DNA of 25,327 nucleotides from a virus. Its lineage: Duplodnaviria; Heunggongvirae; Uroviricota; Caudoviricetes. The notes under the pieces were generated by a model. That model was not told where the DNA came from and made no database searches. It worked only from the letters and a program-made list of their open reading frames with translations. Location of the stretch: IMG/VR virus record IMGVR_UViG_2671180357_000004, positions 1 to 25,327 of that record. The stretch is one strand, 5' to 3'. Within the stretch, counting starts at the first letter, position 1, and each line of letters starts with the position of its first letter. This document shows positions 22,092 through 25,327 of this stretch, piece after piece. Position numbers and translations under genes: made by a program.

Positions 22092-22736
22092 TTAAAACGT
22101 CTCTGAAGGCTTCTGACGCGCTCTGCTGATGTCTATTACCCCAGCTTTTGGACGAGGGTCTACAAGATTCAACTCTTCAGCACTGTGATACTCCGTGTCG
22201 AACTCCCGATCGACATGGCGAATGTAGATGGCTGTCAGAAGGCTGTTATCATTCAGAAAGTGTCCGTAAGATTTGTGAATTACTTCGCTAACCTTCTCAA
22301 TCTTCTCTCCGCCCATGCAGAGATGGTTAAATCGGCTGTGTTTCCGCAGCATTTCATCCACCGGGCCTGAGTAGACCTTATCAACTCTCCCGAACCGGAT
22401 GATATTTCCGGTATCAGCTTCAACCAGACAAACGAGTTTGCCAGGTTCGACACGATCTCGCCAAGTGACACCAGAGCGCAGTGTGTTGAAGTAGGGAGCA
22501 TCCAATCCGATGATCGGTTTACGAAATGCTAGTAGTGGCACGTAACGTATGCAGCTGTTTAGGTGGAAATGCGCACCGGCGTCGTGGAGTTTAAGCCGGG
22601 TTTCGTTAATCGGGCATTTCGAAGCAATGCCGCAAAGGTCGCAGAGCAACTTCTGTTTGTTCAGACTAGTGTTTGATTCAATGGTGTAGGAGCCATCTTC
22701 AAGACGGCGAACCCAGCGCGTGCGTTTAAGATCCAT
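22092..22736 (-). CDS. Hypothetical protein (214 aa)
   Basis: ORF in track; ATG at 22734-22736; contains CDLCGIASKCP; no confident domain call. Confidence 0.5.
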   Translation of the reverse strand: MDLKRTRWVRRLEDGSYTIESNTSLNKQKLLCDLCGIASKCPINETRLKLHDAGAHFHLNSCIRYVPLLAFRKPIIGLDAPYFNTLRSGVTWRDRVEPGKLVCLVEADTGNIIRFGRVDKVYSGPVDEMLRKHSRFNHLCMGGEKIEKVSEVIHKSYGHFLNDNSLLTAIYIRHVDREFDTEYHSAEELNLVDPRPKAGVIDISRARQKPSETF

Positions 22737-22813
22737 AATTCTTGTTCAAATAATTTTGTCCGGGGCAACGATAACGGATAAGGCGCACCGGAGTTTGCAA
22801 ATGCCTGTTTACT

Positions 22814-22830
22814 TATTCACTTTATTCACA
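22814..22830 (+). promoter_or_regulatory. Two tandem DnaA-box-like 9-mers (TTATTCACT, TTATTCACA)
   Basis: Fit the relaxed TTWTNCACA consensus; immediately upstream of the GATC cluster and iteron array. Confidence 0.4.
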
Positions 22831-22835
22831 GGCCC

Positions 22836-22893
22836 GATCCAATATTTAGATCCCCAGAGAGATCCTACAGAAGATCAAAAGAGATCCCCGATC
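22836..22893. promoter_or_regulatory. GATC cluster (6 Dam sites in 58 bp) of origin module 1
   Basis: GATC at 22836, 22849, 22861, 22873, 22883, 22890, mostly within AGAGATCC-type 10-12 bp repeats. Confidence 0.6.
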
Positions 22894-22934
22894 GTCTCCA
22901 GCGCTTGCGGTTACTGGCTTGAGAAGGGGTTACT

Positions 22935-23036
22935 ATCCACTATAGGGAGCAAAATAACCACTGTAGAGAGCATAATAACCGCTATGAAGAGCAAAACAAC
23001 CTCTCTGGAGAGTAGTCGGTATCCACTGTAGTGAGT
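22935..23036 (+). repeat. Iteron array 1: five direct repeats at 21-bp spacing
   Basis: ATCCACTATAGGGAGC, AACCACTGTAGAGAGC, AACCGCTATGAAGAGC, AACCTCTCTGGAGAGT, ATCCACTGTAGTGAGT at 22935, 22956, 22977, 22998, 23021. Confidence 0.85.
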
Positions 23037-23196
23037 AGGAGACAATGTTTTAACTGGATAACTCCGAGCCTGTTTTTCTGCGGCAGATGGCTGATATTCT
23101 TGGAAATATTGTAAATTTTGCGTTGCGGCGTGTTTATTTCGATCACACATTATCCCCAGAAGGGGAGTGATGCCTGATTTTGTAATTATCTGATTT

Positions 23197-23269
23197 TTAT
23201 ACACAGGCCCGATCCAGTAATTCAGATCCCTGTTAGAACCAAAGAGAACCACAAAGACCCAAAGAGATC
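23197..23269. promoter_or_regulatory. Origin module 2: DnaA-box-like TTATACACA plus 3 GATC sites and AAAGAGAnCC repeats
   Basis: CACAGGCCCGATCCA... segment is a near-duplicate of 22828-22893; GATC at 23211, 23225, 23266. Confidence 0.45.
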
Positions 23270-23317
23270 CCCGGCCCCTGCAAACCGTTGTGCCACATGG
23301 CTTTAGAGGTTATCGAT

Positions 23318-23439
23318 ATCCACTATAGTGAGAAGAACAACCACTATGGAGAGTAAATCAACCACTATGGAGAGTAGAAAAACCGCTGTAGGCGGTAGGA
23401 TAACCACTGTGATGGGTGCTACTATCCACTGTAATCAGT
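23318..23439 (+). repeat. Iteron array 2: six direct repeats at 21-bp spacing, ending 40 bp upstream of repA
   Basis: Starts at 23318, 23339, 23360, 23381, 23402, 23424; consensus A(A/T)CCACT(A/G)T(A/G)G(A/T)GAG(T/C). Confidence 0.85.
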
Positions 23440-23478
23440 AAAGGCACCCAAGCCGTCGAATAAAAAGAGACATTTGGA

Positions 23479-24534
23479 ATGAGCGTAAACGACAATAAAA
23501 ACATTGCGATAAGCGAAGCATTTTCCGAAACAGACAAAAAGACCGGCGAAGTTGTTACGTTAGTTCCTAACACCAACAACACAGTTCAGCCTGTTGCTCT
23601 GATGCGTCTTGGTCTCTTCGTTCCGACGCTGAAATCGACATCCAGGGGTAGAAAGGGGCAAATGGTCTCTATGGACGCCTCCGCTGAACTCAAACAGCTG
23701 TCTCTGGCCAAAGCCGAAGGGTACGAGGATATAAGGATTGCTGGTCTTCGTCTTGATATGGATAACGATTTCAAAACATGGGTGGGCATCATCCACGCGT
23801 TCGCCAAGCACAAGGTTGTTGGTGACACCGTCACGTTGCCGTTCGTCGAGTTCGTCAGACTTTGTGGCATTCCAACAGCCAGATCGTCCGCGAAGTTACG
23901 TAAGCGCCTGGACAGCTCTCTAAGTCGTATCGCCACAAACACCATCTCATTCCGCAGCAAAGGCTCTGAAGAGTATTACGTTACGCACCTTGTGCAGACG
24001 GCAAAGTACAGTACCAAGAATGACACGGTCGAACTGAAGGCCGATCCTAAGATTTTCGAACTTTACCAGTTCGACAAAAAGGTGCTTTTGCAACTTCGGG
24101 CCATCAACGAACTCTCCAGAAAGGAATCCGCGCAGGCGCTCTACACCTTCATTGAAAGTTTGCCACCAGACCCGGCGCCAATCTCATTGGCTCGCTTACG
24201 CGCCAGACTTAACTTAACCAGCCGCACCATTACCCAGAATGCGACAGTCAGGAAGGCGATGGAGCAGCTGCGAGAGATCGGCTATCTCGATTACACTGAA
24301 GTGAAACGCGGCAGCTCGGTCTACTTCGTCATCCACTATAGACGGCCGAAGTTACGTTCGGCACTGCCGCCATCTATGGCCACGCCTGAAGATCCAGAAG
24401 ATATCTTGCCAGGTGATGATCCGGAGGACATTATCGATGTTGCTCCTGAAGAAAAAGACGGGGAAATGGTCATGTTGAGCAAGGAAGAACTGGCGATTCT
24501 CGAAGAGCTGCGCAAGGCAAAGGCTCGCAAATAG
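23479..24534 (+). CDS. repA: Iteron-binding replication initiator RepA (RepFIB / P1 RepA-like)
   Basis: 351 aa; [72 protein letters not shown] recalled as hallmarks of RepFIB/P1-type initiators; flanked on both sides by iterons. Confidence 0.9.
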
Positions 24535-24537
24535 CCC

Positions 24538-25136
24538 AACCACTGTAGAGAGTAAAAAGGCTCACTATCCACTGTAGTGAGCCTTTTTGTTTATCGGAAA
24601 TGCAATATCCACTGTAGTGAGTAAAAGAAACCGAAGAATAACCACTGTAGGCAGTGCGCACAAATCGCGAAGTAAATGTTAGTGGTTGCAAACATAGATA
24701 AAACAAGGGCTGAGAGGTTAGCGGTCACTGGGTATCTCTGTTAAGTCTACTCTCTACAGCGGTTATCGTCGCTCTCCTCATTGTTGACTATCCACTGTGA
24801 AGAGCAGAATTGGCTGACTTGACCTCTATCCACTGTAGTGAGTGGATATCCGTTTAAAACAGCGAAGATTTACTCTCCATAGTGGATATCCGCTGGAGGG
24901 GGCATTCCATCACTCTCTATAGTGGTTGTTTGTAGTCAGTGAACGCCTGTTTACTCACTACAGTGTATAGCGACCCCGATAATCACCAATTTACTCACTA
25001 CAGTGGATAGTTGATATCGTGGCAGAGGGTTTGCTCACTACAGTGGTTGGGGTGCATACCTGAAGGGTGTTCTACTCGCTACAGTGGTTATGAGCCGGAT
25101 TCACACGCGGTGAGCTGGCTACTCACCGCAGTGGAT
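24538..25136. repeat. Downstream iteron field: 14 copies (6 direct, 8 inverted relative to the upstream arrays)
   Basis: Direct at 24538, 24567, 24607, 24640, 24790, 24828; inverted at 24749, 24872, 24912, 24953, 24993, 25033, 25074, 25121; the inverted run 24872-25121 has 40-41 bp spacing. Confidence 0.85.
24559..24591 (+). terminator. Rho-independent terminator of repA with an iteron embedded in the stem-loop
   Basis: GGCTCACTA-tccactg-TAGTGAGCC followed by TTTTTGTTT; stem/loop contains iteron ATCCACTGTAGTGAGC. Confidence 0.6.
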
Positions 25137-25327
25137 AGTGTTATCAGTGGATTTTCTTCAGCAGACCCCAGAGTGTCCCGGCCTTCGTTGCGAGCTTACC
25201 TGTTTCCGGATCGTACATGTGCCATTCACGTCGCTGGTGGACAATATACCCATCTTCACGTTCCAGTCGTTCCAGTACGCCGGACTGCTTGAACCCTTTG
25301 GCACGCCAGGTGATGCTGCCAACTTAC

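Follow-up and report, generated by a model that had tools for sequence, protein, structure and literature searches.

A probable incA-type iteron locus downstream of repA in an SSU5-supergroup phage-plasmid

The repA replicon and its downstream iteron field

The window (the whole stretch of DNA analysed, 25,327 nt) carries a repA gene, two origin-like units upstream of it, and a field of iterons downstream of it that contains a terminator-like hairpin and is bounded on the right by a small convergent gene (Table 1). The repA stop codon is the TAG at 24532-24534. The encoded RepA matched the Pfam model Rep3_N (WH1 domain) well above the cut-off (E 2.4e-11) and the model Rep3_C (WH2) weakly, just under it (E 4.9e-4, 20.7 bits, cut-off 21.1). 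RepA shares 64% identity with its counterpart from a pO157-type IncFIB (RepFIB) replicon and 49% with P1 RepA, and searches with it of the PDB sequences and of NCBIfam returned no match, no relative with a solved structure being detectable by sequence. In both upstream units, iterons at two-turn (21-bp) spacing come after a DnaA box and a cluster of GATC sites. Unit B also contains a promoter-like site at 23302-23329 (TTTAGA, 16 nt, TATAGT), whose -10 element lies within the first iteron of that unit. The homologues of the convergent gene are annotated as 'P1 Cra / Cre-associated protein' in SSU5 and Cyrano.

The replicon region (22700-25327) showed 99.7% identity to non-mobilizable E. coli plasmids of ~105-190 kb that are typed IncFIB, ~90% identity to plasmids of Salmonella and Enterobacter, 89.4% identity to Salmonella phage SSU5, and 81.6% identity to the E. 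coli phage-plasmid Cyrano, and a more sensitive search added pHCM2 of Salmonella Typhi and the pMT1-type plasmids of Yersinia pestis as relatives. The genes flanking the replicon are consistent with the SSU5 and Cyrano maps. Because both the sequence identities and the flanking genes match, the window is assigned by sequence to the SSU5-supergroup, as the plasmid replicon of an SSU5/pHCM2/pMT1-type phage-plasmid. No experimental work on this replicon came up in the literature searched, which did not include the original descriptions of pMT1 and P1; a preprint from 2026 dealing with copy-number mutants of a phage-plasmid was set aside, as it concerns an unrelated 49-kb family.

Table 1 Features of the replicon, in positions of the window
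Feature	Position	Strand	Basis or remark
Upstream origin-like unit A	22822..23037	+	DnaA box TTATTCACA, six GATC, five iterons at 21-23 bp
Upstream origin-like unit B, adjoins repA	23197..23440	+	DnaA box TTATACACA, three GATC, six iterons at 21-22 bp
repA, Rep_3-family initiator, 351 aa	23479..24534	+	ORF, Pfam, identity to IncFIB/P1 RepA
Iteron 1, direct, AACCACTGTAGAGAGTA	24538..24554	+	3 nt past stop codon; conserved in all relatives
Hairpin and T-run, probable repA terminator	24559..24592	+	RNA fold; stem kept in 9/9 variants
Iteron 2, direct, ATCCACTGTAGTGAGCC	24567..24583	+	Core search and matrix; within hairpin
Iteron 3, direct, perfect consensus	24607..24623	+	Core search and matrix
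Iteron 4, direct, AACCACTGTAGGCAGTG	24640..24656	+	Matrix; weakest copy, 4 mismatches; nearly invariant in relatives
Conserved non-iteron blocks in 108-bp gap	24675..24734 (24675-24684, 24705-24734)		Column identity 95-97%
Iteron 5, inverted	24748..24764	-	Core search and matrix
Iteron 6, direct	24790..24806	+	Matrix
Iteron 7, direct	24828..24844	+	Core search and matrix
Two partial direct iterons, GATATCCGTTTAAAACAG at 24845 and GATATCCGCTGGAG at 24885	24845..24907		Weak matrix matches, 11-15 bits
Iteron 8, inverted, first of phased run	24871..24887	-	Core search and matrix
Iteron 9, inverted	24911..24927	-	Matrix
Iteron 10, inverted	24952..24968	-	Core search and matrix
Iteron 11, inverted, perfect consensus	24992..25008	-	Core search and matrix
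Iteron 12, inverted	25032..25048	-	Core search and matrix
Iteron 13, inverted	25073..25089	-	Core search and matrix
Right-end palindrome GCGGTGAG-N7-CTCACCGC	25107..25129		Iteron 14 forms one arm
Iteron 14, inverted, variant CACTGCGGTGAG	25120..25136	-	Core search and matrix; invariant in relatives
Small convergent gene, 3' part	25158..25327	-	ORF; bounds field on right

To locate the iterons, we searched the whole window for the core ATCCACTGTAGTGAGTA with up to three mismatches, which gave 16 matches where 0.02 were expected, all of them within 22935-25136. A weight matrix was then built from these copies and run over the 25 kb and over the relatives. The matrix scan identified 14 copies between the repA stop codon (24534) and 25136 and, elsewhere in the 25 kb, nothing comparable to the replicon iterons. 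A single consensus fits the upstream arrays and all 14 downstream copies, and the downstream copies lie closer to it (mean of 2.1 mismatches, vs 3.6 at the origin arrays). The field consists of four direct copies, a mixed trio and seven inverted copies, with successive core spacings of 29, 40, 33, 108, 42, 38, 43, 40, 41, 40, 40, 41 and 47 bp. The original prediction of fourteen iterons after repA, the first four direct, agrees with the matrix scan, and its coordinates and orientations, including those of the copies given at 24749, 24790 and 24828, proved correct to within one base. The predicted inverted run of six does have six members at 40-41 bp (24871-25073), about twice the upstream 21-bp period as had been stated, but the run comprises seven copies, the last lying 47 bp further on (25120). 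The first copy had been described as overlapping the repA stop codon; its core begins 3 nt past the TAG, and the copy abuts the stop codon only when three low-information flank bases are counted.

The field lacks the elements that accompany the upstream arrays: there is no DnaA box or GATC between 24419 and 25208, and an AT-rich stretch is also absent from the field. This composition bears on other conceivable functions of the field, namely those of a second origin, a polar replication-fork barrier or a partition site. Polar barriers and centromeres are likewise characterized by large phased arrays of protein sites with a flip in orientation. Nevertheless, we consider any such function highly improbable: the field has none of the origin elements of the upstream units, its repeats are the replicon's own iterons instead of a separate par repeat, and the homologous P1 and RepFIB loci are known control loci. 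The origin and partition-site readings in particular were rejected on the absence of a DnaA box, a GATC cluster and the two-turn origin layout.

For conservation analysis, eleven orthologous fields were aligned, and seven diverse ones were scored (the window, SSU5, pHCM2, pMT1, a Cyrano-type plasmid, a divergent Salmonella plasmid and Buttiauxella). The layout is the same site by site in all aligned fields. Among the seven scored sequences, the iteron cores are 92% identical and the spacers 74-76%, and in the most distant pair the cores retain 87% identity while the spacers drop to 60%; the inverted copies are as well conserved as the direct ones. Because the cores are conserved above the spacers, this pattern points to selection on the iteron sites rather than on the DNA between them. 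Across 44 SSU5-group loci, most fields have 11-14 copies in total and a final run of 4-7, and the differences in the final run correspond to whole 40-41-bp units lost or duplicated, with junctions within iterons. Open reading frames are present in the region (24470-24706, 24591-24728 and 25011-25292), and a 'hypothetical protein' is annotated inside the field of pHCM2. We rejected a coding reading because conservation follows the iterons and because indels of 40-41 bp would shift any frame.

A terminator-like hairpin containing iteron 2

Iteron 2 lies within a hairpin that starts 25 nt past the repA stop codon. The hairpin has a perfect 9-bp stem with five G-C pairs and a 7-nt loop, being composed of the 5' arm GGCTCACTA (24559-24567), the loop TCCACTG (24568-24574) and the 3' arm TAGTGAGCC (24575-24583). 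The T-run TTTTTGTTT (24584-24592) follows directly 3' of the stem, and AAAAA precedes the 5' arm. The predicted RNA fold has an energy of -23.3 kcal/mol (z = -4.5) on the plus strand and -19.1 kcal/mol (z = -3.5) on the minus strand. Because the A5 tract lies upstream of the stem, a hairpin followed by a U-run is legible on both strands, making the element two-way. Iteron 2 had been predicted to form the loop and the 3' arm of the terminator, which is the case, except that the iteron (24567-24583) also includes the last base of the 5' arm. The further proposal that RepA binding and transcription termination share one sequence holds at the level of structure, in that iteron 2 is inside a conserved terminator-like hairpin; its functional side, coupling, is weighed below. 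A simple consensus terminator scan did not list the hairpin at 24559-24592; in our reading, the flanking A5 and T5 tracts lengthen the stem and consume the T-run in such a scan.

The hairpin is present in all SSU5-group relatives, and its nine core pairs are kept in nine of nine distinct variants. The changes in the stem are compensatory or wobble only, as follows: First, one lineage carries a double change from A-U to G-C (GGCTCGCTA/TAGCGAGCC), where the iteron consensus carries almost no information. Second, the pMT1 lineage has a U-A to U.G change, which is neutral for the RNA but not for a DNA palindrome. Few independent events underlie this covariation. The loop, meanwhile, varies in four lineages. 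Furthermore, the last two bases of iteron 2 are CC instead of the consensus TA, which gives the stem its G-C base, and because this departure from the consensus supplies a stem base, two constraints are visible on iteron 2. The T-run also follows the hairpin in the SSU5, pHCM2, pMT1 and L007 types. In the Cyrano / pE17EC0112-3 lineage the T-run is broken (CCTTACTTATATC) and the stem is longer; judged from the sequence, termination in this lineage would be weak despite the longer stem. From the compensation in the stem, the neutral U.G pair and the double constraint on iteron 2, we favor the reading that the element is most likely an RNA hairpin ending the repA transcript.

The same palindrome (24559-24583) could instead be read at the DNA level, as a site for a RepA dimer formed by an inverted 3' half of an iteron, and not as an RNA terminator. 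Dimers of the Rep_3 proteins F RepE and pPS10 RepA bind inverted half-iterons, the arms CTCACTA and TAGTGAG mirror the 3' half of the iteron, and a second N7 palindrome without a U-run, GCGGTGAG-N7-CTCACCGC, is located at the other end of the field. The stems of this right-end palindrome are invariant among relatives and its loop is variable, and its minus-strand RNA fold has an energy of -24.2 kcal/mol (z = -3.2). Yet the two palindromes are opposite in half-site polarity, so that one dimer geometry cannot fit both. The variation described above also argues for RNA: the pMT1 U.G change makes the DNA half-sites unequal and retains RNA pairing, the compensated position carries little information in the iteron, and a T-run follows the hairpin in most lineages. 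In addition, the element lies downstream of repA whereas the predicted promoter is at 23302-23329, which is not the placement of an operator. Taken with the RNA evidence, a dimer site at this position appears quite improbable, and the terminator remains the preferred assignment.

A search of 22700-25327 against Rfam at E-values up to 1 gave no match above threshold; an Enterococcus antisense RNA model aligned to the hairpin below its threshold (28.7 bits vs 49 bits) and was dismissed as a chance match. In two plasmids whose RepA is identical to that of the window, the loop is inverted with the hairpin intact, so that iteron 2 is flipped to the other strand.

Comparison with P1 incA, RepFIB and other relatives

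According to the annotation of GenBank AF234172, P1 incA comprises nine RepA-binding iterons, the first of which starts on the final base of the repA stop codon. In its sequence, copies 9, 8 and 7 point the same way as repA and copies 6 to 1 the opposite way, at spacings of 31, 41, 40, 31, 31, 31, 30 and 31 bp. The window's field resembles P1 incA in lying directly after a homologous repA, in being built of the replicon's own RepA-binding iterons, arranged direct and then inverted (3 + 6 in P1), in spacing them by whole helical turns, and in having no origin features. The two loci differ as follows: First, P1 has nine copies and the window fourteen. Second, the P1 run is mostly at 30-31 bp (three turns), in contrast to 40-41 bp (four turns) in the window. 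Third, only the window has the mixed trio and the 108-bp gap with conserved non-iteron blocks. Fourth, the window has a strong hairpin containing iteron 2 after repA, whereas P1 has no significant hairpin there (fold z = 0.36); a terminator is therefore not required in this class of loci. Fifth, the window has two upstream origin-like iteron arrays and P1 has one. At last, the first iteron truly overlaps the repA stop codon in P1 and several relatives, but not in the window.

The RepFIB replicons (P307, pO157 and F, with downstream iterons E-K) have the closest RepA among the known control systems compared (64%) and a homologous iteron, ATAAGCTGTAGTGAGTA compared with ATCCACTGTAGTGAGTA in the window. 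In both, the first copy lies right past the stop codon, the inverted run comes last, and a hairpin built from iterons follows repA. In the pO157-type sequence the iterons are located at +3, -33, +53 and -73 and, after a gap, at -200, -218 and -248, which makes about seven copies in the form of two convergent pairs and three inverted copies, while the window has twice as many. Two complete, convergent iterons make up the RepFIB hairpin, which lacks a clean T-run, whereas the hairpin of the window is a half iteron mirrored and followed by a T-run, and the regular 40-41-bp phase is found in the window but not in RepFIB. In RepFIB, the upstream block belongs to the origin, and the downstream block E-K is a control element (PMC11983097). 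The replicon is displaced by EFGHIJ alone when this block is carried on a second plasmid, but not by the upstream block, a result that the authors explain by Rep-mediated pairing of the downstream with the upstream iterons (PMC11983097). According to the same paper, no secondary structure is obvious downstream of rep (PMC11983097). In the pO157-type sequence, however, the pair of iterons E and F gives a fold of -40 kcal/mol, and the hairpin after the RepFIB repA may simply have gone undiscussed.

The pMT1, pHCM2, SSU5 and Cyrano loci are orthologous to that of the window, with the same site-by-site layout and 82-90% DNA identity over the replicon, the Cyrano-type field alone being at ~76%. Their fields contain 12-14 copies, of which the final run accounts for five in pHCM2 and Cyrano, compared with seven in the window; the hairpin differs by the U.G wobble in pMT1 and by the missing T-run in Cyrano. 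For the Cyrano plasmid, a copy number of 5.5 per cell has been measured (PMC9928086). Mini-F incC and the 39-mers and rctA of V. cholerae chromosome 2 are alike in that initiator sites away from the origin restrain initiation by titration and pairing, but their initiators are unrelated or distant and their architecture differs, so the likeness is an analogy of mechanism only.

In the wider family, we compared eighty further RepA relatives with 60-94% identity from Rahnella, Erwinia, Pantoea, Xenorhabdus and other genera. In their loci, direct copies adjoin repA and inverted copies, or convergent pairs, come after them, with a spacing that is specific to the lineage (~19-21 bp in Rahnella and Erwinia). 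Across this wider family (Xenorhabdus, Pantoea, RepFIB), two whole convergent iterons frequently make up the hairpin after repA, sometimes with a T-run, and the Rahnella relatives have an iteron-free terminator after repA. By a rough count, the main hairpin overlaps an iteron in 56 of 97 distinct relatives, a figure to be read with the lower sensitivity of the window-derived matrix in distant relatives and the likelihood of chance overlap in iteron-dense DNA. The original prediction had pointed to the incA-type loci of P1 and RepFIB replicons, and these do follow the same direct-then-inverted plan. Because P1, RepFIB and the wider relatives share this plan, the switch in orientation is, as far as these sequences go, an inherited trait of the whole P1/RepFIB family and not a peculiarity of the window; what sets the SSU5 group apart is only the four-turn spacing of the run and the number of copies.

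A probable role in copy control and incompatibility

Since the RepA protein, the sequence of the sites, their position and their layout are all homologous, the segment 24535-25140 is likely to be the incA-type negative-control iteron locus of a P1/RepFIB-class replicon. This agrees with the original proposal of an inc or copy-control (handcuffing) locus, which gains support from the RepA homology, the iterons shared with the origin arrays, the P1-like layout and the lack of origin features. P1 incA can be dispensed with, and its deletion raises the copy number; the cloned locus causes incompatibility, and RepA mediates its looping to, or handcuffing of, the origin. By homology, RepA monomers would bind the 14 downstream iterons, and the loaded field would both soak up RepA and pair with the origin iterons through RepA-RepA contacts, by looping within one molecule or by handcuffing of sisters, thereby blocking initiation. 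The expected outcome would be a low copy number and incompatibility. The spacing of 40-41 bp (four turns), compared with 21 bp (two turns) at the origin, would place the sites roughly on one face of the helix, and the gain or loss of whole 40-41-bp units would change the dose of control sites. Work on P1 by Abeles, Austin and colleagues in the 1990s reportedly found that the orientation and spacing of the incA iterons mattered little; if so, the 40-41-bp phasing may by analogy carry less function than suggested here.

A field of this kind could also act purely as a titration sink, in which the 14 sites lower free RepA without any pairing with the origin. Fourteen near-consensus sites would take a large share of a scarce initiator, and the number of sites varies among relatives, as expected for a dose-type element. 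In P1, however, Pal and Chattoraj are said to have judged sequestration alone inadequate in 1988, since repA is autoregulated, and in the window the -10 element of the predicted repA promoter, lying inside an iteron, would likewise buffer titration. The authors of the RepFIB study, moreover, read the displacement as a direct interaction between downstream and upstream iterons (PMC11983097). Titration without pairing is therefore rather improbable, and we prefer a control locus that also pairs with the origin.

In the preferred model, transcription of repA most likely stops at the hairpin (24559-24592), ~50 nt past the stop codon, and transcripts started at the repA promoter would then not extend into iterons 3-14. 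The two-way hairpin would, in addition, protect repA from antisense transcription originating in the convergent gene. It would have arisen by mirroring of the 3' half of iteron 2.

The overlap of iteron and hairpin can alternatively be taken, as in the original proposal of a built-in coupling to repA read-through, as a terminator responsive to RepA. RepA bound at iterons 1-2 would alter the stopping of RNA polymerase at 24584-24592, and read-through would strip RepA from iterons 3-14 and relieve inhibition, resulting in a feedback of the RepA level on the strength of control. The position of iteron 2 within the hairpin, with both constraints visible in its consensus departure and in the compensated stem, is in line with this possibility, as is the recurrence of iteron-made hairpins after repA in the 56 of 97 distinct relatives of the rough count, RepFIB included. 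On V. cholerae chromosome 2, transcription of rctA across the 39-mer weakens the inhibitory site (PMC6090056), and in F-FIB a weak replicon was rescued when egfp was inserted after rep, ahead of the downstream iterons (PMC11983097), although the authors credited this rescue to mRNA stability (PMC11983097). Several points weigh against coupling: an RNA hairpin forms whether or not a protein occupies the duplex, the iteron-free terminator of Rahnella and the lack of one in P1 indicate that the overlap is dispensable in the family, and in iteron-packed DNA such an overlap is often expected by chance. Altogether, a RepA-responsive terminator seems unlikely. An extended version, in which the field is insulated on both sides by iteron-made hairpins (24559-24583 and 25107-29) and the repA-side one is RepA-sensitive, so that its occupancy sets the strength of handcuffing, is to our judgment also an unlikely arrangement. 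If true, a link between transcription and copy control would be common to the RepFIB-type replicons, whose iteron-built hairpins seem to be unremarked. A terminator that insulates the control field, and repA from antisense transcription, is the simpler reading.

Judged from its sequence, the locus is a well-preserved, larger but ordinary member of the known incA kind and offers little new in kind; the placement of an iteron in a terminator is possibly a modest, under-described family trait. Phage-plasmids of the SSU5/pHCM2/pMT1 type occur widely in E. coli, Salmonella, Enterobacter, Klebsiella and Yersinia pestis, and resistance or virulence genes can be among their cargo. It is of practical use to know the segment that would set their copy number and incompatibility. 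Because the equivalent RepFIB block alone displaces the plasmid, 24535-25140 is an obvious candidate for a curing cassette against the group. The natural variation of 11-14 control sites among relatives also provides a ready series for relating iteron dose to copy number.

The control-locus model leaves the two non-iteron blocks in the 108-bp gap (24675-24684 and 24705-24734) unaccounted for. They are the best-conserved parts of the field, above the iterons themselves, and are absent from the more distant relatives outside the SSU5 group in which they were sought. Inspection by eye revealed no convincing promoter, DnaA box or IHF site in them. The blocks contain two half-iteron-like GTTAGYGGT sites at 24678 and 24717, and the 39 bp between these sites carries on the 40-bp phase. 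The second block resembles the GGCT..AGAGGTTA leader ahead of the first iteron in both upstream units. Further into the field, the two partial direct iterons flank iteron 8 around GGATATCC palindromes; they are conserved, and weak matches are also found at this place in the relatives.

Conserved blocks and variation in iteron number downstream of repA

Among the close relatives compared (L002, L005, L009, L010, L011 and others), the final inverted run of the downstream iteron field comprises four to seven copies, and the differences between close relatives amount to whole units of 40-41 bp. At the deletion junction of one of these loci, L010, we found a hybrid of two adjacent iterons, suggesting that such repeats undergo recombination or slippage with one another. 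Directly adjoining iterons 7 and 8 are two conserved partial iterons that comprise just the 5' half and are arranged around GGATATCC palindromes.

The highest conservation in the downstream field was found in two non-iteron blocks, AATGTTAGTG and AAGGGCTGAGAGGTTAGCGGTCACTGGGTA, which are confined to the SSU5 group. These blocks contain two half-iteron-like GTTAGYGGT sites located 39 bp apart, and the second block is similar to the leader preceding the first iteron in units A and B, the origin-like modules upstream of repA. An iteron-like sequence, ATCCACTATAGACGGCC, is also present within repA at the VIHYRRP codons and is kept in all SSU5-group relatives; its conservation may be a mere reflection of the coding sequence.

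Positions of the features in the window and in related loci
Feature	Locus	Position
Unit A	window	22822-23037
Unit B	window	23197-23440
Iteron-like sequence in repA	window	24331-24347
Hairpin loop (equivalent inverted in L096, L097)	window	24568-24574
Conserved non-iteron blocks	window	24675-24734
Partial iterons	window	24845-24907
Final inverted run	window	24871-25136
Terminal palindrome	window	25107-25129
Small convergent gene (minus strand)	window	25158-25327
Iterons E and F	L095	2520-2566
46-aa ORF (minus strand)	L005 (pHCM2)	2541-2681

Hairpins and gene annotations in and beside the field

In the terminal palindrome, GCGGTGAG-N7-CTCACCGC, one of the arms is supplied by the last iteron, so that an iteron-derived hairpin is present at both ends of the field. 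Among relatives, its stems are invariant while its loop is variable; no U-run follows it, and it faces a convergent cra-like gene. According to the SSU5 and Cyrano annotation, the product of this small gene adjoining the field is homologous to Cra, the Cre-associated protein of P1; a Pfam search with the partial product found no family. The annotation of pHCM2 places a 'hypothetical protein' of 46 aa inside the iteron field; this is probably a spurious gene call.

At the repA end, two IMG/VR contigs with 100% identical RepA (L096 and L097) have the hairpin loop inverted from TCCACTG to CAGTAGA, retaining the stem and placing iteron 2 on the opposite strand. In the pO157-type RepFIB locus L095, the repA stop codon is directly followed by iterons E and F, the first two of the downstream set, which converge and fold as a pair at about -40 kcal/mol. 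A paper from 2025 on FIB replicons reported that the sequence downstream of rep lacks obvious secondary structure (PMC11983097).

Two origin-like units upstream of repA

Units A and B lie ~375-383 bp apart, and in each of them iterons arrayed at a 21-bp period accompany a DnaA box and a GATC cluster. Unit A has six GATC sites and unit B three, the remaining unit B sites having decayed to GAACC/GACCC. Unit B adjoins repA and harbors the predicted repA promoter. Whereas P1 has a single array of this kind, two lie upstream of repA in the window, and most RepA relatives have both.
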